A DNA stretch of 64,000 bases from positions 1,120,001 through 1,184,000 of the forward strand of contig OZ245002.1 of NCBI GenBank assembly GCA_965223415.1, written 5' to 3'. This stretch comes from Myxococcota bacterium (GTDB taxonomy: Bacteria; Myxococcota_A; UBA9160; UBA6930). A model generated the notes under the pieces. That model worked only from the letters and a program-made list of their open reading frames with translations. It was not told the origin of the DNA and made no database searches. This document shows positions 33,286-55,988 of the stretch, piece after piece; position 1 is the first letter of the stretch, and the number at the start of each line of letters is the position of its first letter. The translations under genes were made by a program, and so were the position numbers.

Positions 33286-33533
33286 GCCGGCGTGGCCGAG
33301 ATGTCCCCCCGGGTCATCCCGCGCGGGGCGCGGGTAACGTGGGGGGGCGGGTCCGACGTGAGCATGGGATCTCCAGAGCACCGGGCCGTTGGGCACTTCG
33401 GCGCGACCGTCGCATCGGCCTCCCCGGTGCCCCGCTGAAGCGGTTGCCGGAGGGCGAAAGCCCCGGGAAATGCGTCAGGTGCAGGCCCGGGACGGTCGAA
33501 AAGGGGGGCTCGCGTACCTCGCTCGGAGACCTC

Positions 33534-34535
33534 GTGTCCGGATCGCCGCCCTCATGGATCGAATCGCCGCGGAAGATGATGGCGGCCGGAGCGCTGCTGG
33601 TGGTCCTCGTCGCGGCGGTGCCGGCGTTCATCGCGACCGAGCGAAGCCGCCCCGGCGAGCCGGCGATGGACACGGCCGGAGCGCCGCAACCGACCGCCGA
33701 GCCGATGCCCGCCGCGGACCCGCTCGCGCCCCCGCCGGACGATTGGCTGGCCCAGGAGGGCGAGCCGGCCCAGGCGCGAGTCAGCGAGGACCCGGACGGT
33801 GCCCTGGACTGCCTGGTCCAGCCTTCCCGGATCGTCGAGATCGGAAGCCAGACGATCGGGCTGATCGAGAAGATCCACGTGGAGCGCGGCGAGCGGGTCG
33901 AGGCCGACCAGGTCGTCGTGGAGCTCGAAGCCGGCGTCGAGGCCGAAGCGGTCCGGGTCGCGCGCATGCGCGCGTCCCTCGAGGGCTCCCTGCGCGCCCA
34001 CGAGGAGAGCGTCGCCCTCAGCAAGAAGCGCAAGCAGCGGGGCGCCAAGCTGTTCCGTCGGAACGCGGTCTCGGCCGACGCCCACGACGAGCTCGAATCC
34101 CAGGCCCGGCTCGCCCAGCACGAGCTGCTCCAGGCCCAGGAGGCGCGACGCCTTGCGGCGCTCGAGTTGCGGCAGGCGAAGGCCGTACTCGCGCGCCGCA
34201 CCCTGCACAGCCCGATCTCCGGCGTCGTCGTCGAACGCCTGCTCGAGGAAGGCGAGGTGGTGGACGAGGAGACGGTGCTGAGGATCGCCCGCATCGATCC
34301 CCTGCGCGTCGACGTGCTGCTCCCGGCGAGCCGCTACGGAACCGTGAAGGAAGGCATGCGGGCGACGATCTCGCCGGAGTTCCCGGTCGACGCGAGCGTG
34401 GTGGCCACGGTCGCCATCGTCGACCCGATCATCGACGCCGCGAGCGGCACCTTCAGCGTGCGGTTAGACCTTCCCAACGAGGACGGTCGGATCCCGGGTG
34501 GTCTCCACTGCACGGTGAAGTTCCTGGGCGAATAG
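33534..34535 (+). CDS. RND/HlyD-type membrane fusion (periplasmic adaptor) protein
   Basis: TM anchor, lipoyl halves (VERGERVEADQVV; LHSPISGVV), coiled coil, DAASGTFSVRLDLPN. Start GTG 33534 or ATG 33576. Confidence 0.88.
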   Translation: MSGSPPSWIESPRKMMAAGALLVVLVAAVPAFIATERSRPGEPAMDTAGAPQPTAEPMPAADPLAPPPDDWLAQEGEPAQARVSEDPDGALDCLVQPSRIVEIGSQTIGLIEKIHVERGERVEADQVVVELEAGVEAEAVRVARMRASLEGSLRAHEESVALSKKRKQRGAKLFRRNAVSADAHDELESQARLAQHELLQAQEARRLAALELRQAKAVLARRTLHSPISGVVVERLLEEGEVVDEETVLRIARIDPLRVDVLLPASRYGTVKEGMRATISPEFPVDASVVATVAIVDPIIDAASGTFSVRLDLPNEDGRIPGGLHCTVKFLGE

Positions 34536-34541
34536 CCGCCG

Positions 34542-36026
34542 ATGGGCTCCTTCAGACCGATCGCACGGATCAGCTTCGGGCTGGTCCTGCTGACGAGCAC
34601 GATCCTGACAGGCCTCGACCTGGTCGGCTGGCTCCCTCGCCCCCAGGCGAGGGACGCGGAGCTTCGCGTCCACATCGCCGAATCGGTGGCGTCCCAGGCG
34701 ATGGCCGGAATCGACCGGGGCGACATGCGCGCCGTGCTTGGCTCCCTGAACATCGCCGTCGAGCGCAGCGAGGAGGTCGTGTCGGCGGGCGTTCGCTCGT
34801 CGAACGGGCGGCTGATCGCCCAGGCGGGCCCCCATGCCGAGGTCTGGAACCCTCCGGACGACGGCCGCTCGACCACCGAGCACATTCGCGTTCCCATCTT
34901 TCGCGACGGCGGCGAGTGGGGCGCGGTGGAGATCCGTTTCCAGGAGCCCCACGCGGACCTCGTCGGCAGCCTCTGGAACAACCCCCTGCTCCGGATCGTG
35001 GGCGTCGTCGGTCTGCTGGGCTTCGTGGCCTACGGGCTCTACATGCGCCGCACCCTCCGTTACCTCGACCCGTCGGCCGTCATTCCCACGCGGGTCCAGG
35101 CCACCCTCGACGTGATGACCGAAGGCGTCATCGTGATCGATCGCAGCGACGACGTCGTGATGGCCAACGAGGCCTTCGCCTCGAGGTTTTCCCTCCAGCC
35201 CGCGGACATGATGGGACGAAAGGCCTCTTCCTTCGGTTGGCGGGACCGGCGGGGCGAGGAGATCGTCGGCCAGCTGCCCTGGATGCGCGCCATGACCGAC
35301 GCCGAGCCCTTCGTGGGCGAGACGATCACCTTGAACCGCAGCGAGCAGGAACGCGTCGTGCTCACGGTCAACGGCGCGCCGGTCCTCGACGGTTGGGGCC
35401 GGCCCACCGGCGCGATCGTCACCTTCGACGACGTCACCGAGCTCGAACGCAACCGCGCGGAGCTGCAGCAGGCCCTCACCGAGCTCGAGAAGTCCCGCGA
35501 CGAGATCCGCCTCCAGAACGAGGAGCTCCAGCAGCTCGCCCGCAGCGACCCCCTGACCGGCGCCGCCAACCGGCGGAGCTTCATGGAGGACGTGGAGCCG
35601 CTCTTCTCACGCATCCAAGCCGACGGCGGCGAGCTCGCCTGCCTGATGGTGGACATCGACCACTTCAAGCGGGTCAACGACGAGCACGGCCACCTCACCG
35701 GCGACGAGGTGATCAAGCGCGTCGCCGAGGCCCTGATCTCCCAGCTCGGCGGAACCGGCATCGTGTGCCGGTACGGCGGCGAGGAGTTCTGCGTGGCCCT
35801 GCCGGACACCCTCCCGGAAGAAGCCGAAGCCCTGGGCGAGCGCGTGCGCCGCCAGATCGGGGCCCCGGGCTTCGCCAGCGTCCCGATCACCGCAAGCCTG
35901 GGGGTCGCTACGCTGCGAAGCGGCGCCTCCGACATCACCGCCCTGATCGACCAGGCGGACCAGGCGCTCTACTCCTCGAAGGAGAACGGGCGGAACCGGC
36001 TGACGCGGTTCGTCCGGACCTCCTGA
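34542..36026 (+). CDS. Membrane PAS-GGDEF diguanylate cyclase
   Basis: Two TM segments, PAS, DPLTGAANRR, DIDHFKRVND, RYGGEEF. Confidence 0.92.
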   Translation: MGSFRPIARISFGLVLLTSTILTGLDLVGWLPRPQARDAELRVHIAESVASQAMAGIDRGDMRAVLGSLNIAVERSEEVVSAGVRSSNGRLIAQAGPHAEVWNPPDDGRSTTEHIRVPIFRDGGEWGAVEIRFQEPHADLVGSLWNNPLLRIVGVVGLLGFVAYGLYMRRTLRYLDPSAVIPTRVQATLDVMTEGVIVIDRSDDVVMANEAFASRFSLQPADMMGRKASSFGWRDRRGEEIVGQLPWMRAMTDAEPFVGETITLNRSEQERVVLTVNGAPVLDGWGRPTGAIVTFDDVTELERNRAELQQALTELEKSRDEIRLQNEELQQLARSDPLTGAANRRSFMEDVEPLFSRIQADGGELACLMVDIDHFKRVNDEHGHLTGDEVIKRVAEALISQLGGTGIVCRYGGEEFCVALPDTLPEEAEALGERVRRQIGAPGFASVPITASLGVATLRSGASDITALIDQADQALYSSKENGRNRLTRFVRTS

Positions 36027-36067
36027 GGACGGGATCGGACGGTCGGGGCGGTGCGATCGACCTGCGC

Positions 36068-38056
36068 CTACTCCGCCGACCCCGCGAACGAAAGCGTCCG
36101 CTCCAACTCCGCCTCGCTCTTCATCAGCTGCGCCCGCTGCGCCGCATGGGCCCGCTCGAGTCGCCGCTGCACCCAGCCCACCCACGCGCGGGAGAGGCGC
36201 TCGCTGCCGGGCACGCTCCGGGCGACGAACGCGCGGAGGATGGCGATCGCCCAGGCCGGGCTGTGCTCCGCGAGCCAGGGGTCTTCGAGGGAGAGAATCT
36301 GCTCGAAGGAGCCGGCGTCGCCCTGGCGGCCGCAGCGGCCGAAGAGCTGGCGGTCGATGCGGCTGGCTTCGGCCCGTTCGACCGAGAGCACATGGAGGCC
36401 GCCGAGCTTCTCGACGTCGTCGGGGACGCGGATGTCCGAGCCGCGGCCGGCCATGTTCGTGGCCACGGTGACGCGCGCGCGCTCGCCGGCCTCACCGACG
36501 ATCTCGGCTTCGCCGGCGTCCTGGCGGGCGTTGAGGACGCGGTGGGGGAGGCGCGCGCGCTCCAGGATGGCGGCCAGCGCCTCCGAGGATCGGACGGAGT
36601 GGGTTCCCACCAGGACCGGACGACCGGAGGCGTGGAGACGACGCAGGCGCTGTACCACCGCGTTCGACTTCGCGGCGGCGGTCGGGAGGATCCGCACGCC
36701 CTGATCGATACGGCGGGAAGGGCGACGCGGCTCGACCCGGATCATCGGCAGGCCGTACACCTCGTCGATCTCGGGGCCGACCTCGCGGCCGGTGCCGGTC
36801 ATGCCGGCGAGCCGCAGGTAGCGACGGTAGAACTGCTGGTAGCTGATGCGCGCGATGGTCTCGCGCTCGCCGGAGACCTCGCAGCCTTCCTTGAGCTCGA
36901 TCATCTGCTGGAGGCCGCCCTCCCAGGAGCGATCGGGCATGGAGCGACCGGTCTGGGCGTCGACGATCTCGACCTTGCCATCGCGCACGATGTAGTCCTC
37001 GTCGCGCACGAAACCCCGCTGGGCGGTGAGGGCCACCCGGATCAGCTCGGCCCGACGCAGGGGCGCGTTCCAGACGCCGCCCTTGCCGGCCGAGAGGCCG
37101 GCGATCCTCTCGCGGCCGGAATCCGTGACGTCGGCACTGCGCCCGTCCCGCGAGAGCCGGAAGTCCCGGCCCTCCTCCAGGCCTTCGGCCACCTCCATGG
37201 CCTCGCGAACGATCTGCTCGAGTCCGGGAGCCGGCACGTTGCGGGAGAGGATGAGGGGCGTGCGGGCCTCGTCGATCAGCACGCTGTCCGCTTCGTCGAC
37301 GATCGCGAAGCACAGACCGCGCAGTAGGAGGCCCCTGCGGCCACCCTGCCCCGCCGCGCCGAGGCGCTTCACCTCGCCCCGCAGCAGCTCGCTGCGATTC
37401 GGGCGCTCGAGACGATCGCGCAGGTAGTCGAAGGCGACCTGCTTGTTCGTCACGTAGGTGACGTCGCAGGCGTAGGCCGCGCGTCGGATGTCGGGATCCG
37501 GGTCCGTGTCGATCACGGTTCCCACGCTCAGGCCGAGCGCCCGGTAGAGGGGCCCCATGATCTCGGCGTCGCGCTCGACCAGGTAGTCGTTCACGGTGAT
37601 CACGTGGACGGGCACGCCGGCCAGCGCCGCCACCGCGGCGGGGAGCGTGGCGGAGAGGGTCTTCCCCTCGCCGGTATCGAGCTCCACGAGCATGCCCTGG
37701 AGCATCGCCATGCCCGCCATGAGCTGGACCTCGAAGTGGGCCATCCCGAGCTCGCGACGCGCGTGCTCGCGCACCAGCGCGAGCGCCTCGTGGAGTGGAT
37801 CGCCCGCCAGCTCCCGCCGTAGGGCCGGCCGGACGTCGCCGAGGCGACGCACGAGCTCCTCGGCCGAGGCGTCTCGCAGCGCGTTGGAGCGGGCGACCAC
37901 TTCCCCGGCCCGCGCCGCCAGCTCCTCGGTGCCCAGGCGCTCGCCCCGCAGCCGCTCCCGGAGCCGGTTCACGCGGTGCTCGAGCTTCGGGGGACGAGGC
38001 TGCACGCGCTCCGGGTAGCCGCCGTGCAGCACGCCGGGCCGGAAGACCTCAGACAC
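36068..38056 (-). CDS. Accessory, C-terminally truncated SecA-like ATPase
   Basis: TGEGKT, VITVNDYL, FDYLRD, DEADSVLIDEARTPLI, ATNMAGRGSDI, GRCGRQGD; only about 660 aa. GTG start overlaps the upstream gene end. Confidence 0.92.
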   Translation of the reverse strand: MSEVFRPGVLHGGYPERVQPRPPKLEHRVNRLRERLRGERLGTEELAARAGEVVARSNALRDASAEELVRRLGDVRPALRRELAGDPLHEALALVREHARRELGMAHFEVQLMAGMAMLQGMLVELDTGEGKTLSATLPAAVAALAGVPVHVITVNDYLVERDAEIMGPLYRALGLSVGTVIDTDPDPDIRRAAYACDVTYVTNKQVAFDYLRDRLERPNRSELLRGEVKRLGAAGQGGRRGLLLRGLCFAIVDEADSVLIDEARTPLILSRNVPAPGLEQIVREAMEVAEGLEEGRDFRLSRDGRSADVTDSGRERIAGLSAGKGGVWNAPLRRAELIRVALTAQRGFVRDEDYIVRDGKVEIVDAQTGRSMPDRSWEGGLQQMIELKEGCEVSGERETIARISYQQFYRRYLRLAGMTGTGREVGPEIDEVYGLPMIRVEPRRPSRRIDQGVRILPTAAAKSNAVVQRLRRLHASGRPVLVGTHSVRSSEALAAILERARLPHRVLNARQDAGEAEIVGEAGERARVTVATNMAGRGSDIRVPDDVEKLGGLHVLSVERAEASRIDRQLFGRCGRQGDAGSFEQILSLEDPWLAEHSPAWAIAILRAFVARSVPGSERLSRAWVGWVQRRLERAHAAQRAQLMKSEAELERTLSFAGSAE

Positions 38057-40196
38057 GGAGCTGGTCCATGAAGAGCCTGCGGACGCCGCGGGCGAGCCGG
38101 AAACCGATCGGCTCGGCGCCGTGCTCGAAGCGCACCCGCGCCAGTGCACCGAGGCCGGGAACGGACGCTCCGGGCTCGAGCCGCACGTCGAATTGGAAGA
38201 GCGACTCGAGGGCAGTCAGCCCCTGCTGGTCCCGGCTATCGACCGCGACCTCCCCACCGCCGGCGGCGCCGAGCGCCAGGCTCGGGAGGCGATCCGTGGC
38301 CTGGGGCACCTCGCGCTCCAGGCGGGCTTCACGTGTCGCGCTCGTACCCGGGAAGCGCACGCTCACGGCCCGCGTGGCCGCCCGGACCCAGGCGGCGTCT
38401 TCCTGCGGCACGACCACGCGCACAGTGGAGTCTCCGGCAATCTCCAGGTAGCCGATGACGGCCCCCTTCTCGAAGAAGCGGCCGGTCAAGTCCTCGGCGC
38501 GCGGCAGGACCAGACGTCCCGTGGCTTGTGCGCGGACGATCCCTTCCTCGAGCCGCTCGCGCGCGCGTCGCAGCTCTGCGCGAACCGAAGCCAGCTCGAC
38601 CCGCGCCACCTCGGCACCGACCCGGTCGCGGGGCTGCTTGGAATCGAGGCGCGCGCGTGCCTCCCGCTCGCGCGCCTCCAAGGCCCGCAGCTCCGCGGTG
38701 AGGAGGTCGTCGCGAATCTCGAGGAGAGGCGTGCCCGGCCCCACCTCGCTCCCGGGCTCGGCAAGGATCCGGTGCACCACGCCCCCCGCGCCGGCACGCA
38801 CCTGGGCCTGCTCCGGGAGCCAGACCACGCCCTCGGCGAGGGTCCACATCGGAAACGGCAGCACGAAGAGGAGCAGGGCCACGGCGACGACCGACGCCGC
38901 GGCACGGCCTGCCACCTGGAGCGGACGCTCTCCCACTCGCGGATCCCGGTGCAGTGCCAGCAGTCCCTTCGCGGCGGGGATTCCGACCTGCAGCACCAGG
39001 GACCAGATCGCGAGAGCGACGCCGACGCTGAAGAAGCGGCTGGCGACGAAGAGCGCGATCGAGGTGGTGAGGAAGATCCGATAGACGAAGGCCAGCACGC
39101 CGTAGCCGGCGAGCCAGACGCGTTCGTCAGGTGCGACCGCCTGGGGACGGCGCTCCGGAAGGCCCAGAATGCCCGTCTCGGCCAGGTAGCGCAGGTATTT
39201 GTTCGCGCGCGTCGCCAGATTCGGCATCTCGAGCGCGTCGGCCAGCACGTAGTAGCCGTCGAAGCGGATCAGCGGATTGCCGTTGAACAGCAGCGTGGAG
39301 ATGCCGCCGATCGCCATGACCTGGAACGCCGCCAGCTTGACGACTCCCGGTGAGACCGCGATCCAGAGGAACAGGGCGAGAGAGGCCAGGGCAAGCTCGA
39401 CGATCACCCCGGCAGCACCGACCACCATGCGCGGGCGCTTGCGCGGGAACACCCAGGTGCCGGAGGCATCGACGTAGGGCACGGGCATGCCGAGCAGCAG
39501 CATGATCCCGATCTCGTGGACCGGCGCGCCCCAGTGCTTCGCGGCGAAGGCGTGCCCCAGCTCGTGAAGCGTCTTCACGATGGGGTAGATCACGACGAGC
39601 ATCACCAGGCTCATCGGATCCCAGAGCATGTCCCGCGTGTAAGAGGCGAGCTCGCTTCCATGGGCCACCGCCGTCACACCGCCGGCGACGACGAGGAAGC
39701 ACCAGAGCCACCAGGCGATGCGCGTGAAGAGGGGCGCGACGCGGCCCCGATGGCGTTCGAGCCAGGCATCCGGGTCCCAGAGCGGGATGCGGACGTAGAG
39801 CGGGTTCTTGAAGCGGGTGGCGATCGACTGCTGGCGGGCGTGGTGGACATGGCGCGCAAAGAGCTGGCTCGTGTCGGGCGAGACGTCGCATAGCATCGCG
39901 TCCGCCGAGTTCAGCTGGGCGAGGAGCGCGATCATCTGGCCCTGGGTGGGTGCGTCGTCGCCCAGCCGGTCGAGGGCGGCGTCCCAGATCTCGGCGACCG
40001 TCCGCCGCCCGTCCATCTGGGAGACGACGAAGTGGGCCGAGGGCGGGAAGCGATGCTGCCGCCGCGCCGTCGCGTTCTCGAGGATGTACCAGCGCTGGCC
40101 CCGATAGACGTGCCGGTGGATGCGCACGTGGGCGCGGAGGCGCGGGCGCAGCTCGGCCACGCGGTACCAGAAGGGGCTGAACAGCCGCTCGCCCAC
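38049..40196 (-). CDS. M50 (site-2 protease type) membrane peptidase fused to a HlyD-like domain
   Basis: HELGH, NPLIRFDGYY, multiple TM segments, PqqD-like N-terminus, C-terminal lipoyl/hairpin domain; TAGTG coupling. Confidence 0.88.
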   Translation of the reverse strand: MGERLFSPFWYRVAELRPRLRAHVRIHRHVYRGQRWYILENATARRQHRFPPSAHFVVSQMDGRRTVAEIWDAALDRLGDDAPTQGQMIALLAQLNSADAMLCDVSPDTSQLFARHVHHARQQSIATRFKNPLYVRIPLWDPDAWLERHRGRVAPLFTRIAWWLWCFLVVAGGVTAVAHGSELASYTRDMLWDPMSLVMLVVIYPIVKTLHELGHAFAAKHWGAPVHEIGIMLLLGMPVPYVDASGTWVFPRKRPRMVVGAAGVIVELALASLALFLWIAVSPGVVKLAAFQVMAIGGISTLLFNGNPLIRFDGYYVLADALEMPNLATRANKYLRYLAETGILGLPERRPQAVAPDERVWLAGYGVLAFVYRIFLTTSIALFVASRFFSVGVALAIWSLVLQVGIPAAKGLLALHRDPRVGERPLQVAGRAAASVVAVALLLFVLPFPMWTLAEGVVWLPEQAQVRAGAGGVVHRILAEPGSEVGPGTPLLEIRDDLLTAELRALEAREREARARLDSKQPRDRVGAEVARVELASVRAELRRARERLEEGIVRAQATGRLVLPRAEDLTGRFFEKGAVIGYLEIAGDSTVRVVVPQEDAAWVRAATRAVSVRFPGTSATREARLEREVPQATDRLPSLALGAAGGGEVAVDSRDQQGLTALESLFQFDVRLEPGASVPGLGALARVRFEHGAEPIGFRLARGVRRLFMDQLRV

Positions 40197-42001: not shown

Positions 42002-42155
42002 CGGCCTGCACGCCTGGTTTCCTGAGGACTTCCAGCGGGTTGCCTCCCATCTCACCCCGGAATGAGGGTCTTCTGCCGCTTCGATGCGTCCTCTCGATCG
42101 ACTAAATTGTGTGATTTTCAACCCATTTTCTTCAAGCGAGGCTTCGGGCGCTCCG

Positions 42156-48100: not shown

Positions 48101-51100
48101 CGTCGAGACGAGCTCCGGACAAGTCGTCGCGGTCTGGCAGAGCGAGAACGTCGACGCCGACCTCAGCGGCATCGCCTCCCGGGTGGTTGCCACCGGCTCG
48201 GCTTCGGTCGCCGAGAACGCGATCGCTGGGGCTCGGGTGGCGGATGCCCTCGGCGTCGCGGATCCCGACGCTGACGATACCCACACCTTCTCGCTGATCG
48301 ACGACGCGGGAGGCCGCTTCGCGATCGATTCGGTCACCGGCGAGATCACCGTGGCGGATGGAAGCCTGCTCGACTACGAAACCGCGACGAGCCACACCGT
48401 CACGGTACGCGCGACGGACGCCGGGGGCCTGAGCTACGACGAGGCCCTGGTCATCTCCCTGCTCGACGTCGACGAGGCCCCCTCGGCGGTGGCCGACGCC
48501 GCGACCGTCGGCGAGGGCGCAAGCGTCACGATCGACCTGGCCGCCAACGACGCCGATCCGGAGGGTGCCCTCGACCTGACCTCGATCCAGATCATCTCCG
48601 GCCCCGCCAACGGCACCTTGGTGGACAATGGCGACGGTACCCTCACCTACACCCACGATGGCTCCGAGACCGTTGGCGACAGCTTCTCCTACACCATCGA
48701 TGACGTCTCGGGGGCTGCCTCCAACGTCGCCTCGGTCACCCTGACGGTCACGCCCCAGAACGACGCCCCGACTGCGGCGAACGATGCGGCCACGGTCGAC
48801 GAGGGCAGCTCCGTCGTCATCAATCTCACCGGAAACGACTCCGACCCCGACAACGCCCTCGACCTCTCCTCGATCACGATCACCTCGGGCCCCGCCAACG
48901 GCACGCTGGTCGACCACGGCGACGGCACCTTCACCTACACCCACGATGGCTCCGAGACCGTTGGCGACAGCTTCTCCTACACCATCGATGACGTCTCGGG
49001 GGCTGCCTCCAACGTCGCCTCGGTCACCCTGACGGTCACGCCGCAGAACGATGCCCCGACTGCCACCAACGATGCGGCCACGGTCGACGAGGGCAGCTCC
49101 GTCGTGATCAATCTCACCGGAAACGACTCCGACCCCGACAACGCCCTCGATCTCTCCTCGATCACGATCACCAGCGGTCCCGCCAACGGCACGCTCGTCG
49201 ACCACGGCGACGGCACCCTCACCTACACCCACGATGGCTCCGAGACCGTTGGCGACTCCTTCTCCTACACCATCGACGACGTCTCGGGCGCCACCTCGAA
49301 CGTCGCCTCGGTCACCCTGACGGTCACGCCGCAGAACGATGCCCCGACTGCCACCAACGATGCGGCCACGGTCGACGAGGGCAGCTCCGTCGTGATCAAC
49401 CTGGCTGGGAACGACTCGGACCCGGACAACGCCCTCGACCTCTCCTCGATCACGATCACCTCGGGCCCCGCCAACGGCACCCTGGTGGACAATGGCGATG
49501 GCACCCTCACCTACACCCACGATGGCTCCGAGACCGTTGGCGACTCCTTCTCCTACAGCATCGATGACGTCTCGGGCGCCACCTCGAACGTCGCCTCCGT
49601 CACCCTGACGGTCACGCCGCAGAACGATGCCCCGACTGCCACCAACGATGCGGCCACGGTCGACGAGGGCAGCTCCGTCGTGATCAACCTGGCTGGGAAC
49701 GACTCGGACCCGGACAACGCCCTCGACCTCTCCTCGATCACGATCACCTCGGGCCCCGCCAACGGCACCCTGGTGGACAATGGCGATGGCACCCTCACCT
49801 ACACCCACGATGGCTCCGAGACCGTTGGCGACTCCTTCTCCTACAGCATCGATGACGTCTCGGGCGCCACCTCCAACGTCGCCTCCGTCACCCTGACCGT
49901 CACGCCCCAGAACGACGCCCCGACCGCCGCCAACGATGCGGCCACGGTCGACGAGGGCAGCTCCGTCGTGATCAACCTGGCCGGGAACGACTCGGATCCG
50001 GACAACGCTCTCGACCTCTCCTCGATCACGATCACCTCGGGTCCGACCAACGGCACGCTGGTCGACCACGGCGACGGCACCTTCACCTACACCCACGATG
50101 GCTCCGAGACCGTCGGCGACAGCTTCTCCTACAGCATCGATGACGTCTCGGGCGCCACCTCGAACGTTGCCTCCGTCACCCTGACCGTCACGCCGCAGAA
50201 CGACGCCCCGACCGCCGCGAACGATGCGGCCACGGTCGACGAGGGGAGCTCCGTCGTCATCAACCTCACCGGGAACGACTCGGACCCGGACAACGCTCTC
50301 GACCTCTCCTCGATCACGATCACCTCGGGCCCCGCCAACGGCACCCTGGTGGACAATGGCGACGGCACCTTCACCTACACCCACGACGGCTCCGAGACCG
50401 TTGGCGACAGCTTCTCCTACACCATCGATGACGTCTCGGGGGCTGCCTCCAACGTCGCCTCGGTCACCCTGACGGTCACGCCCCAGAACGACGCCCCGAC
50501 TGCGGCGAACGATGCGGCCACGGTCGACGAGGGCAGCTCCGTCGTCATCAATCTCACCGGGAACGACTCGGATCCGGACAACGCTCTCGACCTCTCCTCG
50601 ATCACGATCACCAGCGGTCCCGCCAACGGCACGCTGGTCGACCACGGTGACGGCACCTTCACCTACACCCACGACGGCTCCGAGACCGTTGGCGACTCCT
50701 TCTCCTACACCATCGACGACGTCTCGGGCGCCACCTCCAACGTCGCCTCGGTCACCCTGACCGTCACGCCCCAGAACGACGCCCCGACTGCGGCGAACGA
50801 TGCGGCCACGGTCGACGAGGGCAGCTCCGTCGTCATCAATCTCACCGGGAACGACTCGGATCCGGACAACGCTCTCGACCTCTCCTCGATCACGATCACC
50901 AGCGGTCCCGCCAACGGCACGCTGGTCGACCACGGTGACGGCACCTTCACCTACACCCACGACGGCTCCGAGACCGTTGGCGACTCCTTCTCCTACACCA
51001 TCGACGACGTCTCGGGCGCCACCTCCAACGTCGCCTCGGTCACCCTGACCGTCACGCCCCAGAACGACGCCCCGACTGCGGCGAACGATGCGGCCACGGT

Positions 51101-54100
51101 CGACGAGGGCAGCTCCGTCGTCATCAACCTGGCCGGGAACGACTCGGACCCGGACAACGCCCTCGACCTCTCCTCGATCACGATCACCAGCGGTCCCGCC
51201 AACGGCACGCTCGTCGACCACGGCGACGGCACCCTCACCTACACCCACGATGGCTCCGAGACCGTTGGCGACTCCTTCTCCTACACCATCGACGACGTCT
51301 CGGGCGCCACCTCGAACGTCGCCTCGGTCACCCTGACCGTCACGCCCCAGAACGACGCCCCGACCGCCGCGAACGATGCGGCCACGGTCGACGAGGGCAG
51401 CTCCGTCGTGATCAACCTGGCCGGGAACGACTCGGACCCGGACAACGCTCTCGACCTCTCCTCGATCACGATCACCAGCGGTCCCGCCAACGGCACGCTC
51501 GTCGACCACGGCGACGGCACCTTCACCTACACCCACGATGGCTCCGAGACCGTTGGCGACTCCTTCTCCTACACCATCGATGACGTCTCGGGCGCCACCT
51601 CGAACGTTGCCTCCGTCACCCTGACCGTCACGCCCCAGAACGACGCCCCGACTGCGGCGAACGATGCGGCCACCGTCGACGAGGGCAGCTCCGTCGTGAT
51701 CAACCTGGCCGGGAACGACTCGGACCCGGACAACGCCCTCGACCTCTCCTCGATCACGATCACCTCGGGCCCCGCCAACGGCACCCTGGTGGACAATGGC
51801 GATGGCACCCTCACCTACACCCACGATGGCTCCGAGACCGTTGGCGACTCCTTCACCTACACCATCGATGACGTCTCGGGCGCCACCTCGAACGTCGCCT
51901 CGGTCACCCTGACGGTCACGCCCCAGAACGACGCCCCGACTGCGGCGAACGATGCGGCCACCGTCGACGAGGGCAGCTCCGTCGTCATCAACCTGGCCGG
52001 GAACGACTCGGATCCGGACAACGCTCTCGACCTCTCCTCGATCACGATCACCAGCGGTCCCGCCAACGGCACGCTCGTCGACCACGGCGACGGCACCTTC
52101 ACCTACACCCACGATGGCTCCGAGACCGTTGGCGACTCCTTCTCCTACACCATCGATGACGTCTCGGGCGCCACCTCGAACGTTGCCTCCGTCACCCTGA
52201 CCGTCACGCCCCAGAACGACGCCCCGACTGCGGCGAACGATGCGGCCACCGTCGACGAGGGCAGCTCCGTCGTGATCAACCTGGCCGGGAACGACTCGGA
52301 CCCGGACAACGCCCTCGACCTCTCCTCGATCACGATCACCTCGGGCCCCGCCAACGGCACCCTGGTGGACAATGGCGATGGCACCCTCACCTACACCCAC
52401 GATGGCTCCGAGACCGTTGGCGACTCCTTCACCTACACCATCGATGACGTCTCGGGCGCCACCTCGAACGTCGCCTCGGTCACCCTGACGGTCACGCCCC
52501 AGAACGACGCCCCGACTGCGGCGAACGATGCGGCCACCGTCGACGAGGGCAGCTCCGTCGTCATCAACCTGGCCGGGAACGACTCGGATCCGGACAACGC
52601 TCTCGACCTCTCCTCGATCACGATCACCAGCGGTCCCGCCAACGGCACGCTGGTCGACCACGGTGACGGCACCTTCACCTACACCCACGACGGCTCCGAG
52701 ACCGTTGGCGACTCCTTCTCCTACACCATCGACGACGTCTCGGGCGCCACCTCCAACGTCGCCTCGGTCACCCTGACCGTCACGCCCCAGAACGACGCCC
52801 CGACTGCGGCGAACGATGCGGCCACGGTCGACGAGGGCAGCTCCGTCGTCATCAACCTGGCCGGGAACGACTCGGACCCGGACAACGCCCTCGACCTCTC
52901 CTCGATCACGATCACCAGCGGTCCCGCCAACGGCACGCTCGTCGACCACGGCGACGGCACCCTCACCTACACCCACGATGGCTCCGAGACCGTTGGCGAC
53001 TCCTTCTCCTACACCATCGACGACGTCTCGGGCGCCACCTCGAACGTCGCCTCGGTCACCCTGACCGTCACGCCCCAGAACGACGCCCCGACCGCCGCGA
53101 ACGATGCGGCCACGGTCGACGAGGGCAGCTCCGTCGTGATCAACCTGGCCGGGAACGACTCGGACCCGGACAACGCTCTCGACCTCTCCTCGATCACGAT
53201 CACCAGCGGTCCCGCCAACGGCACGCTCGTCGACCACGGCGACGGCACCTTCACCTACACCCACGATGGCTCCGAGACCGTTGGCGACTCCTTCTCCTAC
53301 ACCATCGATGACGTCTCGGGCGCCACCTCGAACGTTGCCTCCGTCACCCTGACCGTCACGCCCCAGAACGACGCCCCGACTGCGGCGAACGATGCGGCCA
53401 CCGTCGACGAGGGCAGCTCCGTCGTGATCAACCTGGCCGGGAACGACTCGGACCCGGACAACGCCCTCGACCTCTCCTCGATCACGATCACCTCGGGCCC
53501 CGCCAACGGCACCCTGGTGGACAATGGCGATGGCACCCTCACCTACACCCACGATGGCTCCGAGACCGTTGGCGACTCCTTCACCTACACCATCGATGAC
53601 GTCTCGGGCGCCACCTCGAACGTCGCCTCGGTCACCCTGACGGTCACGCCCCAGAACGACGCCCCGACTGCGGCGAACGATGCGGCCACCGTCGACGAGG
53701 GCAGCTCCGTCGTCATCAACCTGGCCGGGAACGACTCGGATCCGGACAACGCTCTCGACCTCTCCTCGATCACGATCACCAGCGGTCCCGCCAACGGCAC
53801 GCTGGTCGACCACGGTGACGGCACCTTCACCTACACCCACGACGGCTCCGAGACCGTTGGCGACTCCTTCTCCTACACCATCGACGACGTCTCGGGCGCC
53901 ACCTCCAACGTCGCCTCGGTCACCCTGACCGTCACGCCCCAGAACGACGCCCCGACTGCGGCGAACGATGCGGCCACCGTCGACGAGGGCAGCTCCGTCG
54001 TCATCAACCTGGCCGGGAACGACTCGGACCCGGACAACGCCCTCGACCTCTCCTCGATCACGATCACCAGCGGTCCCGCCAACGGCACGCTCGTCGACCA

Positions 54101-55988
54101 CGGCGACGGCACCCTCACCTACACCCACGATGGCTCCGAGACCGTCGGCGACTCCTTCTCCTACACCATCGATGACGTCTCGGGCGCCACCTCCAACGTC
54201 GCCTCCGTCACCCTGACGGTCACGCCCCAGAACGACAGCCCGATCCTCGGCAACAACGCCCTCACGATCTCCGAGGGTGGCGCGGTCATCCTCTCCAGCA
54301 CGGATCTCTCGGCCACCGACGCCGAGACCGGCGCTGGCCTCCTTCAGTTCACCGTCTCCGGCGTGACCGGCGGCCGGTTCGAGCTGGTCGGCAGCCCGGG
54401 CGTCCCGATCACCTCCTTCACCCAGGCCCAGGTCGCCGCCGGCCAGGTCCAGTTCGTCCATGACGGCGGCGAGGCGGCACCGGCCTATTCCGTCACGGTC
54501 TCGGACAGCGCCCTTATCGACGGCCCGCTCGCCGCGACCATCACTTTCACGAATGTTAACGACGTCCCCACCATCATCGACCAGCCCATGAGCGTGGACG
54601 AGAACACGCCCGCCGGGGCGCTGGTGGGCGCGGTGGCGGCCGGCGACGCGGACGCGGGCGACGCTCTCGTCTTCTCCATCACCGGCGGCAACACCGGTGG
54701 TGCGTTCGCGATCGATCCCGCCAACGGCGACCTCTTCGTCGCGGATCCCGCGCCGATCGATTTCGAGGTCAACCCGACGATCGCCCTGACGGTAACGGTC
54801 GAGGACCTGGCGGGTGCCACGGACTCGGCGACGGTCACAGTGAGCGTCCTGAACCTGAACGAGCCGCTCTCGATCACGGGACCGGGCGGCCTGAGCCTCG
54901 CACCCGGAGCCAGCCTGGTCTTCTCCACCACCGGGGGCACGTCGATCGCGATCAGCGATCCCGACGGACCGACGGCGCCGTTGGAGCTCACCCTCTCCGC
55001 GACGGGCGGCACGATGACGCTGCCGACCACCGCCGGGCTGGCGATGCTGGCGGGGACCGGTGCGGGCGACGCGACGATGACCTTCCGGGGCACGGTGGCG
55101 GCGGTGCAGACGGCACTCGAAGGCCTGGCCTTCGACTCCGACGGCAGCGCGAGCGCGGGCGTTGCCCTCGCGGCCACCGATCTCGGCCCGGGCGGCACGG
55201 CGGCCAGCGCCAACTTCGGCATCGCGGTCCAGACCGTCACGACGCCGACGCCCACGACCCCGCCGCCGGTCGATCCACCGGTGGACCCGCCGATCTCGCT
55301 CCCGCCCACCGAGATCACCGACCCGGCCGACCCCGAGGCACCGACCACGCGGAGCGGTCCGGAGAGCAGCGCCCCGGAGCCCGCTTCGCCGGCCCCGGAG
55401 CCCGTCGCCACCCCGACCAGCCTGGGACCGGCCCCTGGCTTCTCGGTTCCGAACAGGTACCAGATCGAACACGTGGAGTTCCGGCAGATCGAAGCGAACG
55501 ACGCGGAGGCGGCCCTGGTGGAAGGCACACCGCTGACACCCAGGGAGGATCTCTCGCCGCGGGAACACCGCGCCGGTGAGGTGCCGTTCGACCTCGGCCT
55601 GCTCCGCGCGAGCTTTGTCCATCCCGACTTCCTGGCCTCCCTCGATCGCATGCGCCAGGACGTGCTGGAGTCCGATCGCGAGACGTCCGGCGAACGGGAC
55701 TGGTTCGTCCCGGCGATCGAGAGCATCGCCATGGTCGCGACCACGGGCCTGCTCGCCGGCGTGCTGCGGGCCAGCTCGCTGCTGGCGGCGGCGATCTCCG
55801 CGGTGCCGCTCTGGAAGCAGGCCGACCCGCTGATGATCCTCTCGCTCTCGAAGGACGAGCGGCGGGACCTCGAGGCGAGCCTTCGCCACGAGCAGGGCCG
55901 TGAACGCGCCCTGGACGCAGTCCTCGACCGCCGGCCCCGTGCCGACGAGGCCGGGGAAGCGGAAGACGAGGAGACCCCGGAGGAGTAG
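42156..55988 (+). CDS. Giant repeat surface protein / adhesin (LEPR-XLL, DUF4347, DNRLRE-like, LamG, PKD, beta-propeller, cadherin, about 23 Ig-like repeats)
   Basis: LEPRVLLS; ELVFVD...LYGCDLA...GGDWTLE; WGDG; FGPDGHLYV repeats; LDYE/IDFE cadherin motifs; 96-aa NDAP repeats; Pro-rich linker; hydrophobic C-terminus. Confidence 0.93.
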   Translation: MSADTDPRAPARSATPAGGTRADKESAPLARRRRRQRKKAERKKVLQQPGQPALEALEPRVLLSTFTVAPEADSLEEAMSAADPATGAIEFTLNADPAAAVDEVAVESRSELVFVDTGVEDYQRLVDDLRAASPDGRTVEVFLLDTERDGVEQISEILSDHQGVDAIHVVSHGTDGAVQLGDTWLSGDTLARYETDLMGWAEALSAEADLLFYGCDLAAGASGNALVQSIAKLTGADVAASEDLTGAKALGGDWTLEVATGDVETSLAFSETLQRSWSATLETATFQQGVGGYTGTLDTEIDSANPGTTLGSSVTLEADTVNSSGGVSQGLLQFGDLFGTGPGRIPLGSTITSATLELNVTDATGASANVALHRMLTPWDESSTWNSLSGGVQFDDVEAMIAADGQVATPAATGPITVSGLESALQSWSDGAGNHGWVIDITSSNAWVVSTSEDATASLRPKLTVEYVAPNSVAVASDDSLNTTEGIPVVFDPTSNDTDADSEAVSIVEFTQPANGTVVDNGDGTLTYTPDGGFSGADTFDYLAIDAGSGLQHHWGLAGNATDSIGGADGSRIGTTTVPGNLGSGLSFDEIDDHVLLPDISYASEFTVSFDFKVDENNGSLVQYLYSHGDVNSTNSLNVFLLEGAHTTDPNMLRTVIRDGNDTLDNSALQVDIASLVGDSQWHTYTLTVGAAGAEVFIDGVLSNSASYGSDGLDPAGDVHLGARHDLDPDRFFGGSLDSVQLYSRALSSTEVSDLASRANRATAVVTVAAEPTPTVSASGSSTITAGAVYTLNLSSANLGTISGWTINWGDGTIDAVAGDPGSVDHVYTQAGMTHEITVSATDENGTFTSSRLLTASDHNSTVYLLDGSTGDIAQKLPTSPELARSTGATIGPDGNFYVASLDTDSIVRFDGSTGAFLGTFVSAGSGGLDQPMGLDFGADGNLYVASYVTHEVLRYDAATGAFIDAFVPSTAGVNGPTSVEFGPDGHLYVASWSSGMVHRFDGSTGAFIDDFADTGGAGATDVAFGPDGHLYVSSALQNRVFEFDGVNGASLDSFAVSSAYSLEFGPDGHLYVSRWGYDLIEEYDPDSNTLLGTFADAADGIDGPWGIDFTPNQQVTVLANPAPTAVNDLAAVNEGGSVIIDVAGNDSDPNNALDLSSIAVTSGPANGSLVDNGDGTLTYTHDGSETVGDSFSYTVDDVLGASSNVASVTLTVTPQNDSPSVVGLHNDELNYTEGSGTVILEQGGDVLVSDVDSADFAGGSLNVEVDSGLVATEDVFAIRNQGSGAGQIGIVGSDVTYGGVVIGSFVGGTGVTPLTVSFNSNATATAVTHLVRNITYENLDLEDPTEGARSVTVDITDGDGGTSGTQNLTVNVTAVNDQAIADLDGADGAGRDFSATFTEGTGPVGVTDADATVSDVDDSDFAGLGINLSDFLDGTSEKITIAGYTFAFGVPEVVIRTIGSTDFEIDFDGSGFTISRDISGNMPQADLQTLVRGITYENTSSDPTTGDRSFDIIPQDGGGLNGLSSTATISVVATNTAPTALDDAASVDEGASVVIDLSGNDSDPDNALDLGSIVITSGPANGTLVDNGDGTLTYTHDGSETMGDGFSYTIQDASGATSNVASVTLTVTPVNEAPTDVVFDSESTAERSLNTYGTGDQMDPAIAALPDGGFVAVWVSQGQDGDGYGIYGRRFDAASVAVGSEFLVTSEISDHETNPSVTAFADGGFAVAWQDQASGVNAWTEARVFAADGTPASGEFRLSPGLDGDHEGYQPAVVALNADEFVAVWANEVGGSTYEVVGRIYDRAGNAVSGQFSVGSLASGSGLFGAQTEVARLDDGGFAVVWRTHDGANLGTRVRVMNADGTPRSAELVLAGDDIGDVAALSSGGFVVTYDASGDLHASIFDASGVSVAGPVKVNTTSSAARYESSVARSDDGFVVAWESSAGDGSGSSVLAQRFDANGTRIDAEILVNETTTGNQVKPELVETSSGQVVAVWQSENVDADLSGIASRVVATGSASVAENAIAGARVADALGVADPDADDTHTFSLIDDAGGRFAIDSVTGEITVADGSLLDYETATSHTVTVRATDAGGLSYDEALVISLLDVDEAPSAVADAATVGEGASVTIDLAANDADPEGALDLTSIQIISGPANGTLVDNGDGTLTYTHDGSETVGDSFSYTIDDVSGAASNVASVTLTVTPQNDAPTAANDAATVDEGSSVVINLTGNDSDPDNALDLSSITITSGPANGTLVDHGDGTFTYTHDGSETVGDSFSYTIDDVSGAASNVASVTLTVTPQNDAPTATNDAATVDEGSSVVINLTGNDSDPDNALDLSSITITSGPANGTLVDHGDGTLTYTHDGSETVGDSFSYTIDDVSGATSNVASVTLTVTPQNDAPTATNDAATVDEGSSVVINLAGNDSDPDNALDLSSITITSGPANGTLVDNGDGTLTYTHDGSETVGDSFSYSIDDVSGATSNVASVTLTVTPQNDAPTATNDAATVDEGSSVVINLAGNDSDPDNALDLSSITITSGPANGTLVDNGDGTLTYTHDGSETVGDSFSYSIDDVSGATSNVASVTLTVTPQNDAPTAANDAATVDEGSSVVINLAGNDSDPDNALDLSSITITSGPTNGTLVDHGDGTFTYTHDGSETVGDSFSYSIDDVSGATSNVASVTLTVTPQNDAPTAANDAATVDEGSSVVINLTGNDSDPDNALDLSSITITSGPANGTLVDNGDGTFTYTHDGSETVGDSFSYTIDDVSGAASNVASVTLTVTPQNDAPTAANDAATVDEGSSVVINLTGNDSDPDNALDLSSITITSGPANGTLVDHGDGTFTYTHDGSETVGDSFSYTIDDVSGATSNVASVTLTVTPQNDAPTAANDAATVDEGSSVVINLTGNDSDPDNALDLSSITITSGPANGTLVDHGDGTFTYTHDGSETVGDSFSYTIDDVSGATSNVASVTLTVTPQNDAPTAANDAATVDEGSSVVINLAGNDSDPDNALDLSSITITSGPANGTLVDHGDGTLTYTHDGSETVGDSFSYTIDDVSGATSNVASVTLTVTPQNDAPTAANDAATVDEGSSVVINLAGNDSDPDNALDLSSITITSGPANGTLVDHGDGTFTYTHDGSETVGDSFSYTIDDVSGATSNVASVTLTVTPQNDAPTAANDAATVDEGSSVVINLAGNDSDPDNALDLSSITITSGPANGTLVDNGDGTLTYTHDGSETVGDSFTYTIDDVSGATSNVASVTLTVTPQNDAPTAANDAATVDEGSSVVINLAGNDSDPDNALDLSSITITSGPANGTLVDHGDGTFTYTHDGSETVGDSFSYTIDDVSGATSNVASVTLTVTPQNDAPTAANDAATVDEGSSVVINLAGNDSDPDNALDLSSITITSGPANGTLVDNGDGTLTYTHDGSETVGDSFTYTIDDVSGATSNVASVTLTVTPQNDAPTAANDAATVDEGSSVVINLAGNDSDPDNALDLSSITITSGPANGTLVDHGDGTFTYTHDGSETVGDSFSYTIDDVSGATSNVASVTLTVTPQNDAPTAANDAATVDEGSSVVINLAGNDSDPDNALDLSSITITSGPANGTLVDHGDGTLTYTHDGSETVGDSFSYTIDDVSGATSNVASVTLTVTPQNDAPTAANDAATVDEGSSVVINLAGNDSDPDNALDLSSITITSGPANGTLVDHGDGTFTYTHDGSETVGDSFSYTIDDVSGATSNVASVTLTVTPQNDAPTAANDAATVDEGSSVVINLAGNDSDPDNALDLSSITITSGPANGTLVDNGDGTLTYTHDGSETVGDSFTYTIDDVSGATSNVASVTLTVTPQNDAPTAANDAATVDEGSSVVINLAGNDSDPDNALDLSSITITSGPANGTLVDHGDGTFTYTHDGSETVGDSFSYTIDDVSGATSNVASVTLTVTPQNDAPTAANDAATVDEGSSVVINLAGNDSDPDNALDLSSITITSGPANGTLVDHGDGTLTYTHDGSETVGDSFSYTIDDVSGATSNVASVTLTVTPQNDSPILGNNALTISEGGAVILSSTDLSATDAETGAGLLQFTVSGVTGGRFELVGSPGVPITSFTQAQVAAGQVQFVHDGGEAAPAYSVTVSDSALIDGPLAATITFTNVNDVPTIIDQPMSVDENTPAGALVGAVAAGDADAGDALVFSITGGNTGGAFAIDPANGDLFVADPAPIDFEVNPTIALTVTVEDLAGATDSATVTVSVLNLNEPLSITGPGGLSLAPGASLVFSTTGGTSIAISDPDGPTAPLELTLSATGGTMTLPTTAGLAMLAGTGAGDATMTFRGTVAAVQTALEGLAFDSDGSASAGVALAATDLGPGGTAASANFGIAVQTVTTPTPTTPPPVDPPVDPPISLPPTEITDPADPEAPTTRSGPESSAPEPASPAPEPVATPTSLGPAPGFSVPNRYQIEHVEFRQIEANDAEAALVEGTPLTPREDLSPREHRAGEVPFDLGLLRASFVHPDFLASLDRMRQDVLESDRETSGERDWFVPAIESIAMVATTGLLAGVLRASSLLAAAISAVPLWKQADPLMILSLSKDERRDLEASLRHEQGRERALDAVLDRRPRADEAGEAEDEETPEE
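48471..54236 (+). repeat. Tandem array of about 20 x 288-bp units encoding 96-aa Ig/cadherin-like domains
   Basis: Exact 288-nt periodicity; 19 near-identical units from about 48759 plus one diverged first unit. Dispersed related copies near 45520 and 46760. Confidence 0.97.

Follow-up and report, generated by a model that had tools for sequence, protein, structure and literature searches.

A candidate export cassette for giant LEPR-leader proteins, comprising a short SecA, an M50 peptidase–HlyD protein and two further HlyD-type adaptors

The locus and its genes

A gene cluster at positions 33534–55988 of a 64-kb stretch of Myxococcota DNA (assembly GCA_965223415.1, contig OZ245002.1; hereafter the window, meaning the whole of the stretch analysed) encodes a short paralogue of SecA, an inner-membrane protein that joins PqqD-like, M50 peptidase and HlyD domains (M50-HlyD), two further HlyD-type adaptors (GAF-HlyD and HlyD3) and a giant surface-type protein. 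Our principal finding is that the first four of these genes make up a cassette with an order that recurs in many phyla, and that this cassette co-occurs with giant proteins bearing an N-terminal LEPR-XLL leader. An earlier reading of the same sequence (the original prediction) had taken the locus for a dedicated exporter of a giant adhesin, in which the SecA paralogue replaces the ATP-binding cassette (ABC) ATPase of type I secretion and the M50 membrane domain forms or gates a pore; that reading is partly supported here.

The window is ~70% G+C and long open reading frames (ORFs) are frequent on both of its strands, so genes were assigned by their family matches. GC3-weighted greedy gene calls were tried and rejected, as they gave shadow ORFs opposite HlyD3, M50-HlyD and GAF-HlyD.

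Three of the cassette genes form a translationally coupled operon on the reverse strand. GAF-HlyD (40196 to ~42001, ~601 aa; GAF 23.3 bits against a cut-off of 22.4, HlyD_3 1.2e-17, HlyD_D23) has a ~335-aa cytoplasmic N-terminal region with the GAF domain, a transmembrane (TM) helix at residues 338–356 and a periplasmic HlyD domain, and its stop codon overlaps the GTG start of M50-HlyD by 1 nt (TAGTG). M50-HlyD itself (38049–40196, 715 aa; assigned from family matches and an AlphaFold2 model) has a stop codon that overlaps by 8 nt (GTGTCTGA) the GTG start of the short SecA (36068–38056, 662 aa; SecA_DEAD 1.2e-92, PPXD 5.1e-22, P-loop_SecA 1.6e-46), and gene maps show the identical 8-nt overlap in several relatives. 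The start of GAF-HlyD is uncertain (ATG 42001 or GTG 42055). Given starts at 42001 and, for the divergently transcribed giant gene, at 42156, the gap between the two is only ~150 bp (42002–42155, from start-codon analysis) and presumably holds the promoters of both. Genes, order and stop/start overlaps all confirm the coupled operon, divergent from the giant, that had been described originally.

The third adaptor gene, also part of that description, is present but has to be relocated: HlyD3 (33534–34535, ~333 aa; HlyD_D23 1.7e-19, HlyD_3 3.2e-15, RND_mfp 113 bits, above cut-off) stands outside the operon on the forward strand, convergent with SecA. The protein has a short cytoplasmic N-terminus, a single TM helix (MMAAGALLVVLVAAVPAFI) close to its GTG start (33534) and a barrel-sandwich domain in the periplasm, with an additional match to Biotin_lipoyl at 4.2e-5. 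The locus thus holds three HlyD-domain proteins, and scores to the type_I_hlyD model TIGR01843 are far below its cut-off. HlyD3, inverted relative to the operon, is followed on the same strand by a PAS-GGDEF diguanylate cyclase gene (34542–36026; GGDEF 2.4e-39, PAS 7e-10) that the original prediction did not name.

The giant is encoded by a forward-strand ORF of 4634 aa (42084–55988; assigned by domain matches), with a probable start at M25 (42156) that leaves 4610 aa. Its N-terminal leader (42156–42356) consists of an Arg/Lys-rich stretch followed by the sequence LEALEPRVLLS at ORF residues 78–88 (nt 42315–42347). The LEPR-XLL model (NF012209) matches residues 77–88 with 16.0 bits in hmmscan (cut-off 17) and with 22.3 bits, above cut-off, in a six-frame search of the genome. 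Hydropathy analysis shows no hydrophobic Sec-type h-region at the N-terminus. After the leader come a DUF4347 domain (residues 136–305, nt 42489–42998; PF14252 9.3e-59), one DNRLRE domain, over 20 repeats of the cadherin-like/tandem-95 kind and, towards the C-terminus, a conserved module. Pfam and NCBIfam searches of the giant gave no match to an RTX or type I signal family, although type I signals are poorly defined and their absence is unprovable.

The giant is the only DUF4347 protein in this genome, as well as the only match to our 24-position model of the leader motif (LEPR-8K, introduced below). Within DUF4347, H95, H99 and C142 are invariant in 14 sequences, the histidines in SHG/SHA and the cysteine in YGC, each after a hydrophobic strand. 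An AlphaFold2 model of the domain (pLDDT 78) has as its top solved match the Pseudomonas aeruginosa type VI secretion protein Tce1 (9qpe_G, Z 12.9), with SAVED-CHAT (8tl0) at Z 9.8; clostripain, caspases and legumain follow at Z ~7, mixed with unrelated Rossmann-like folds. The modelled fold is caspase/CHAT-like, and the domain may be a cysteine protease of the caspase type that acts on the giant once it has been exported. DUF4347 is absent altogether from three of the five cassette genomes checked; as only some cassette-linked giants have it, the feature that they share is the leader.

At the other end, the C-terminal module (residues ~4511–4621, nt 55614–55946) comprises a moderately hydrophobic segment (LLAGVLRASSLLAAAISAV) and a charged tail, and is 46% identical over 111 aa to the C-terminus of a cassette-linked giant in a genome of the same family (G056). 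Its role might be that of a membrane anchor or of an additional recognition element. Giants of different lineages end differently, and no C-terminal signal common to all of them was found. Several of the cassette-linked giants from other lineages examined for this (loci L022, L035, L078, L056 and L027) have a metzincin-like zinc motif (GWFVD...MDLLSVxxHExGHxxGxxH) near the C-terminus that is missing from the giant of the window.

Conservation of the cassette

A survey of loci, with one genome taken per species, gave at least 588 confirmed cassette loci, from which the best 80 were taken with up to 10 kb on each side and their neighbours counted by local tblastn with the proteins of the window. 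One of the 80, L064, is from a genome flagged as unpublished and contributes to the counts only. M50-HlyD has more than 7000 relatives in the protein collection, nearly all of them 715 aa long and ~50% identical across Myxococcota, Beta- and Gammaproteobacteria. Directly upstream of M50-HlyD, a GAF-HlyD homologue is found in 78 of the 80 loci; in the other two, the sequence available on that side is shorter than 300 nt. Of the 67 loci that extend far enough downstream (at least 2.2 kb), 63 have a SecA-like gene there, and HlyD3 is present in 38 of the 44 loci with room for it, mostly immediately 3′ of SecA, in fourth place in the operon. The loci come from Proteobacteria, Myxococcota, Nitrospirales, Omnitrophota, Bacteroidota, Planctomycetota and others, and recurrence of the same order in 80 loci from so many phyla is beyond chance.

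Three other genes are occasional companions. SapC is present in 19 of the 80 loci, DUF3467 in 21 and a gene of the OEP/TolC family inside the cluster in eight. The usual place of SapC and DUF3467 is either between the giant and GAF-HlyD or between M50-HlyD and SecA (for example L035:6950-7768, L027:12340-13188, L022:7643-8047 and L056:7786-8145). In the genome of the window, tblastn with the SapC, DUF3467 and cluster-type OEP proteins of the relatives gave no match at E 1e-3, and a single cassette was found. An OEP gene located after the giant in the same-family genome G056 was not counted as a TolC of the cassette because an AcrB-type pump gene follows it and it has no close homologue in this genome.

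As originally proposed, a cognate ABC exporter is not a routine companion of the cassette. Searches with two ABC ATPase queries (tblastn) and Pfam scans of the submitted ORFs found no ABC ATPase in the window, and of the nine ABC_membrane genes that the genome encodes, none is within 230 kb of the cassette. In a set of 110 ORFs neighbouring the cassette at 15 loci, ABC ATPases were limited to one of a sugar-uptake system and one of an Mla system; two ABC-2 permease ORFs were seen in L027. Across the 80 loci, an ABC ATPase of any kind lies within the flanks in seven (five of the seven being untyped), and none is nearer than ~2.6 kb.

The canonical components that the original prediction expected elsewhere in the genome were located. 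Canonical SecA is encoded at C1:5291455-5293866 and scores 1086 bits against TIGR00963, compared with 455 bits for the short SecA, and a single SecY match was obtained, with no second SecY or SecY2. Two OEP/TolC-family genes also lie elsewhere, as candidates for the outer-membrane duct. The in-cluster OEP genes of eight loci fit the proposal that the adaptors bridge to a TolC-type duct.

Linkage to giant LEPR-leader proteins

To describe the neighbours of the cassette, we defined a giant ORF as one of at least 1500 aa, or of at least 700 aa if it runs off the locus, lying upstream on the same strand, downstream, or divergently. Full 10-kb flanks were available for 35 loci, and in 31 of these a giant or LEPR-bearing ORF adjoins the cassette (the exceptions being L017, L044, L073 and L084). 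Where giants lie upstream, their 5′ ends fall outside the flank, and more DNA was therefore fetched for four of these and for two further cassettes of the same genomes. All five of the N-termini brought into view in this way have a basic stretch and then [FL]E[AP]LEPRxLLSAD or a sequence close to it; for the sixth ORF, 20 kb did not suffice to reach the end of the open frame. Overall, the sequence hExLEPRxLLSAD is found 14–93 aa from the first start codon in 23 matches (21 distinct ORFs), and 26 cassette-adjoining giants of other genomes bear the motif when looser-regex matches and the five fetched N-termini are included.

We then asked whether the two elements occur in the same genomes, using the LEPR-8K model. 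The first sample consisted of 151 genomes from the phylum of the window. Full-length M50-HlyD was present in nine of these and LEPR-8K in eight, all eight being among the nine; three more genomes had weak or partial M50-HlyD matches, and none of the 139 genomes without any M50-HlyD match had the LEPR motif. The second sample was chosen to avoid leaning on one clade and comprised 121 genomes of the family of an alphaproteobacterial carrier; a class-level sample around that carrier (G004) had proved too sparse, with the cassette in only one of 151 genomes, G004 itself. In the family-level sample, both elements were found in 14 genomes, the cassette alone in one (G365), a weak LEPR match alone in one (G373, 20 bits) and neither in 105. 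Copy numbers agree as well, in that genomes with two cassettes have two LEPR matches. The LEPR ORFs of this sample are mostly 4,619–17,824 aa long and on the same contig as the cassette, and where coordinates were worked out they end directly upstream of it.

The pattern of co-occurrence is thus alike in two distant lineages, and from 80 loci and samples of 151 and 121 genomes it can be said that the four families are found together, and together with LEPR-XLL giants, as had been proposed. The link to giant proteins was the original prediction's own addition to what was known of such loci and is the best supported by the data of all its claims.

The alphaproteobacterial family also provides ORFs of 10,000–17,824 residues with a LEPR leader directly upstream of cassettes (G405:C4:103221 onward, G403, G396, G004 and others). 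These are among the longest bacterial ORFs that we have seen reported.

M50-HlyD and predicted recognition of the leader

M50-HlyD has three parts: a PqqD-like domain resembling a RiPP recognition element (RRE, where RiPP stands for ribosomally synthesised and post-translationally modified peptide) at residues ~20–100, an M50 region with ~7 TM helices at ~150–450 and a HlyD/MFP adaptor domain at 451–715. Site-2 proteases (Peptidase M50) are recognised by an HExxH motif in a TM helix and a downstream NxxPxxxxDG motif. Both are present in M50-HlyD, as HELGH at 211–215 and NGNPLIRFDG at 305–314 (NGNPLxRFDGYY at 305–316), and H211, E212, H215, N305, P308, D313 and G314 are invariant in 13 diverse M50-HlyD sequences; the Pfam M50 match, at 19.3, stays under its cut-off (27.2). 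The best NCBIfam match for residues 18–403 is the daptide metalloprotease model daptide_HExxH (NF041824; 147.1 bits, E 7.7e-43), below its cut-off of 300, and the YydH/LiaK model (NF058609) gives 33 bits against a cut-off of 225. The Joint Genome Institute label for the family is ‘putative peptide zinc metalloprotease’.

In the AlphaFold2 model of M50-HlyD (pLDDT 71.8), residues 24–100 form three strands and three helices, a layout that would be that of a PqqD/RRE leader-binding domain. The model also has ~7 membrane helices, with HELGH within one of them and a beta-hairpin following, and an adaptor domain with a two-helix hairpin (497–520 and 525–550) that matches MexA, MacA, AcrA and TMexC at E 5e-12 to 1e-8. 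A Foldseek search with the whole model as query returned adaptor proteins only. Given an odd number of TM helices, the PqqD-like domain would be cytoplasmic and the adaptor domain periplasmic.

Multimer structure prediction had been proposed as a check, and we carried it out with residues 1–430 of M50-HlyD (alignment of 13 sequences), the N-terminal 96 residues of the giant, counted from M25 (alignment of 18 leaders), and a zinc ion. The ipSAE between leader and M50-HlyD, which is the model's own confidence, was 0.65, 0.65 and 0.64 in three runs, compared with 0.00 for the best control; the 0.65 mark is reached by 116 of 157 solved complexes and by two of 215 mismatched pairs. Contacts agree between runs to at least 55%, and the confident ones involve, in the leader, only residues 50–67 (GQPALEALEPRVLLSTFT), which is the conserved motif. 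On the PqqD-like side, they involve the strand 45–51 and residues 81–98 (largely helix 85–100); on the M50 side, they involve the HELGH helix 204–215, the invariant PVPYVDAS loop 239–248 and the NGNPLxRFDGYY segment 300–316. This geometry is what would be expected if the RRE-like domain held the leader as an added strand and fed the LEPR segment to the zinc site, and the complex model accordingly predicts binding of the leader to the PqqD-like and M50 regions.

With the LEPR motif placed both on the PqqD-like domain and in the HExxH active site, we read the M50 domain as a putative leader peptidase rather than a pore. The original suggestion that it forms or gates the inner-membrane channel finds no support here, although an oligomer of the seven-helix domain might act as a pore.

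The short SecA

The short SecA retains the first nucleotide-binding domain (NBD1), PPXD and the second (NBD2), with no match to the wing or scaffold. It aligns only to residues 45–588 of Bacillus subtilis SecA and ends where the helical scaffold begins; the GEGKT (Walker A), DEAD and NMAGRG motifs are all intact. The 120 best relatives are mostly 655–670 aa long and none has a Pfam match to the SecA wing or scaffold. Every SecA and SecA2 model in NCBIfam is matched below its cut-off, the SecA2 models giving 421 bits for TIGR03714 (cut-off 930), 424 for TIGR04221 (725), 476 for TIGR04397 (1085) and 339 for NF012136 (1100). In canonical SecA, the region after NBD2 includes the two-helix finger and surfaces that sit on SecY, with scaffold, finger and wing all being used there. 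Since the short SecA lacks the finger and the SecY-contact surfaces, docking on SecYEG in the canonical manner is doubtful. In several NCBI records, relatives of the short SecA go under the name ‘prepilin peptidase’, apparently a mistaken annotation that has been propagated through sequence similarity.

Probable rearrangement of the locus, and neighbouring genes

The closest named relative of the locus, in a Myxococcota metagenome-assembled genome (MAG; L034), has GAF-HlyD, M50-HlyD, SecA, HlyD3, PAS-GGDEF and the giant in that order on one strand, and the layout in the window can therefore be regarded as a rearranged version of it. A search of the whole genome with the cassette proteins (tblastn) found a 40-aa remnant of an HlyD3-like gene on the reverse strand just beyond the stop codon of the giant (56025–56144; 62.5% identity to the HlyD3 C-terminus, residues 385–424), and an IS110-family transposase gene, recognised by family match, lies 1.7 kb further on (57893–59029, forward strand). 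Remnant, transposase and the inverted HlyD3/GGDEF pair together suggest that the locus has been rearranged relative to L034.

The PAS-GGDEF homologue of L034 is 54% identical and lies between HlyD3 and the giant; no orthologue is found at the other loci. PAS-GGDEF is thus a lineage-specific companion outside the universal cassette and a probable regulator. Two context genes on the reverse strand, assigned by family match, encode a hybrid histidine kinase (30829–33396) and a REC-PAS-GGDEF-EAL protein (28712 to ~30830), and the same architectures are seen beside the cassette in L034, the closest relative, only. A nonulosonic-acid-type sugar cluster at 10798–17125, 16 kb upstream of the cassette, encodes an MptE-like/Maf protein, NeuB and a cytidylyltransferase–TPP enzyme fusion; no link to the cassette was seen.

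A proposed export route and its alternatives

Taken together, gene content, conserved order, linkage to leader-bearing giants and the predicted leader complex make it reasonably probable that the cassette is a dedicated envelope-spanning machine for export and processing of the neighbouring giant. More tentatively, and with the balance tipping slightly to the side of doubt, it can be proposed that this is a distinct pathway of diderm bacteria for proteins of 4,600–17,800 residues in the sampled genomes, some of the largest known from bacteria, combining a cleavable LEPR leader, an RRE-type domain, an M50 protease, three adaptors, TolC and a truncated SecA that works with neither SecYEG nor an ABC transporter, with export in one step and N-terminus first.

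In this scheme, the giant would be made without a Sec signal peptide, its N-terminal leader being the basic stretch followed by hExLEPRxLLSAD. The cytoplasmic PqqD/RRE-like domain of M50-HlyD would bind the leader by beta-strand addition and present the LEPR segment to the membrane-embedded HExxH/NPxxxxDG zinc site, which would remove the leader. From gene content, we infer that the short SecA substitutes for the ABC ATPase: keeping its two ATPase domains and the preprotein-binding domain but having lost the two-helix finger, wing and C-terminal tail, it would push the unfolded chain by means of ATP, N-terminus first, in place of the type I motor. GAF-HlyD, M50-HlyD and HlyD3 would build a tunnel through the periplasm that leads to a TolC-family duct. 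The gene for the duct would lie outside the cluster in this genome but within it in some relatives, as the in-cluster TolC-family genes there suggest. In this lineage, the GAF domain and the adjacent PAS-GGDEF and two-component genes would probably gate the machine.

A number of observations weigh against this scheme. SecA is not universal in the cassette: of the four loci without the usual gene, L033 has a remnant-like match of 92 bits, and in L055 and L085 (both from one MAG, G158) and L060 (an Omnitrophota MAG, G156) M50-HlyD is followed straight by HlyD3 or the giant, with no SecA between. G158, with its two SecA-less cassettes, shows only a canonical, fragmented SecA, whilst G156 has a 666-aa short SecA on a different contig. 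Three further loci have a far more divergent SecA-like gene (~30% identity). No channel-forming inner-membrane partner is evident in the cassette. As regards the cargo, the large cassette-adjoining ORFs of L026 and L052 have visible 5′ ends and no motif (that of L052 being possibly a shadow frame), a full-length cassette occurs without a LEPR match in one genome of each sample (G103 and G365), and genomes within a sample are related, so that the co-occurrence tables, to which no formal statistic was applied, overstate independence. On the structural side, the Pfam PqqD match is 17.2 bits, below its cut-off of 23.4; the custom alignments and the riding zinc depart from the calibration of ipSAE; the fold of the leader is uncertain (partner pLDDT 48–50); and RRE–leader complexes have been solved for other families, so part of the pass could reflect likeness to these. 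Finally, in Methylobacterium extorquens AM1, only the GAF gene of such a locus, META1p2399-2402, is described as clearly expressed, in exponential phase, in the text of Kamneva et al. (2015; PMC4452313).

The SecA-less cassettes and the lack of an evident channel also count in favour of the main rival, a two-step route in which the short SecA is an accessory motor feeding SecYEG, in the manner of Gram-positive SecA2, after which M50-HlyD, GAF-HlyD and HlyD3 trim the giant and pass it to a TolC-type duct. The short SecA is a true SecA homologue with PPXD and ATPase motifs intact, canonical SecA and one SecY are present in this genome, and the SecA-less cassettes (four of 67, with two in G158) might use the canonical protein. 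The structural features used on SecY (scaffold helices, two-helix finger and wing) are nevertheless missing from the short SecA, a hydrophobic signal peptide is absent from the giant, no SecY2 is found, and the PqqD-like domain paired with the leader lies N-terminal to the protease, presumably on the cytoplasmic side. On this evidence we consider the two-step route unlikely.

Regulated release has a lower probability still. By this account, the giants are exported by other means and the cassette is a release or retention device, in which a signal sensed by the GAF domain leads to cutting of an N-terminal anchor, resembling the control of LapA by LapD and LapG. In this lineage the cassette is surrounded by GAF, PAS-GGDEF, GGDEF-EAL and two-component genes, and the protease is predicted by the complex model to engage an N-terminal motif. 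The cyclic di-GMP genes are lineage-specific, however, being absent from most of the 80 loci, and three TolC-type adaptors, an in-cluster OEP gene (8/80 loci) and an ATPase would all be superfluous for a switch. Nor is another export route, whether an ABC transporter or a C-terminal type I signal, evident for the giants.

Maturation and export of a small RiPP-like peptide in the daptide or YydF style, with the giant a functionally meaningless neighbour, is very improbable: the NCBIfam matches of M50-HlyD to the daptide metalloprotease (147 bits) and YydH/LiaK (33 bits) and its ‘peptide zinc metalloprotease’ label favour it, but neither match comes near its cut-off (300 and 225, respectively), no small precursor or modification enzymes recur in the 110 neighbour ORFs of 15 loci or appear in the window (very small ORFs being outside the search), and cassette presence and copy number track the LEPR giants, which bear the motif themselves, nearly one to one.

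Comparison with known systems

The export of bacterial proteins of 5,000 to ~18,000 residues that possess no Sec signal peptide and no type I signal is an unexplained problem. The cassette, present in at least 588 species-level genomes, offers a testable answer in which the LEPR leader is the signal and the receptor/protease, motor and adaptors are all encoded together. If the proposed one-step export is correct, it would represent a secretion route that mixes Sec, type I and RiPP-leader parts; it would also explain what thousands of genes do that at present are labelled ‘peptidase M50’, ‘HlyD family’ or even ‘prepilin peptidase’, and would help in studying how environmental and host-associated bacteria display giant adhesins on their surface.

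The likeness to type I secretion (HlyB–HlyD–TolC or LapB–LapC–LapE) lies in the HlyD-type adaptors, the proposed TolC-family duct, the huge repetitive cargo encoded nearby and the lack of a Sec signal peptide. The differences are that there is no ABC transporter here, that the ATPase belongs to the SecA family and that there are three adaptors rather than one. The type I signal is moreover C-terminal and uncleaved, whereas the LEPR leader is N-terminal and probably cleaved, and no RTX or type I signal family was detected on the giant.

Peptidase-containing ABC transporters (PCATs), which export bacteriocins, resemble the scheme proposed for the cassette in that an N-terminal leader is read and cut during export by a protease attached to the exporter. 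Their parts are not homologous to those found here, being a C39 cysteine peptidase and an ABC transporter in place of an RRE-like domain, an M50 protease and a SecA-like ATPase, and their cargo is a peptide rather than a chain of thousands of residues. The RRE-dependent intramembrane leader peptidases of RiPP systems (NF041824 and NF058609) have an N-terminal region that recognises the leader and, after it, an M50 membrane protease with HExxH, a layout like that read for M50-HlyD. M50-HlyD is not an equivalog of NF041824 (147 bits, below 300), and differs in its fusion to HlyD, in its association with SecA and further adaptors and in having giants as neighbours.

The accessory Sec systems of Gram-positives and mycobacteria (SecA2/SecY2 and SecA2-only) likewise employ a second SecA for a few unusual and often very large surface proteins. 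The short SecA is distinct from these in scoring below the SecA2 cut-offs, in having no SecY2, in ending after NBD2, in its diderm host and in being coupled to HlyD adaptors. In giant proteins of Omnitrophota and Actinobacteria, the preprint text of West-Roberts et al. (2023; bioRxiv 10.1101/2023.11.21.568195) describes internal SecA ATPase and PPXD domains without scaffold or wing, which are suggested to assist in the giant's own export; genes for type II secretion lie close by. The two cases are alike in domain content, but there SecA is a domain of the giant and here it is a separate 662-aa protein in an operon with adaptors and a protease.

The nearest precedent is the conserved secondary SecA_DEAD locus described by Kamneva, Poudel and Ward (2015; PLoS One 10:e0129066, PMC4452313). 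In the text of that article, the locus is made up of GAF/HlyD, Peptidase_M50/HlyD, a secondary SecA_DEAD, HlyD/Biotin_lipoyl and sometimes OEP genes, with no ABC transporter, and its spread across phyla is patchy and resembles lateral transfer. The gene set is the same as that of the window: the second SecA_DEAD, M50/HlyD, GAF/HlyD and HlyD/Biotin_lipoyl genes and the absence of an ABC transporter are all found here. Kamneva et al. (2015) suggested that SecA_DEAD serves as the ATPase and that M50 may form the pore, ideas that are thus already published, and called the biological role ‘completely unknown’. A term search of the article's text (PMC4452313) for giant, adhesin, PqqD, cadherin and ‘large protein’ gave no hits, and ‘substrate’ appears only in a general sentence. 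A literature search found the article cited only in work by the same first author. Neither the link between the cassette and LEPR giants nor a reading of the M50 protein as their leader peptidase was found in the literature searched, which included few subscription journals; the supplements and Fig. 3 of Kamneva et al. may show large neighbours.

The locus type itself was therefore published in 2015 (PMC4452313), and its gene set has since been in print without a cargo or a role. What is new here, relative to the text of that article, is the link to LEPR-XLL giants as cargo together with the reading of M50-HlyD as a putative PqqD/RRE-guided leader peptidase, and with it the recognition of SapC and DUF3467 as recurrent companions; it is the cargo link that makes the system testable.

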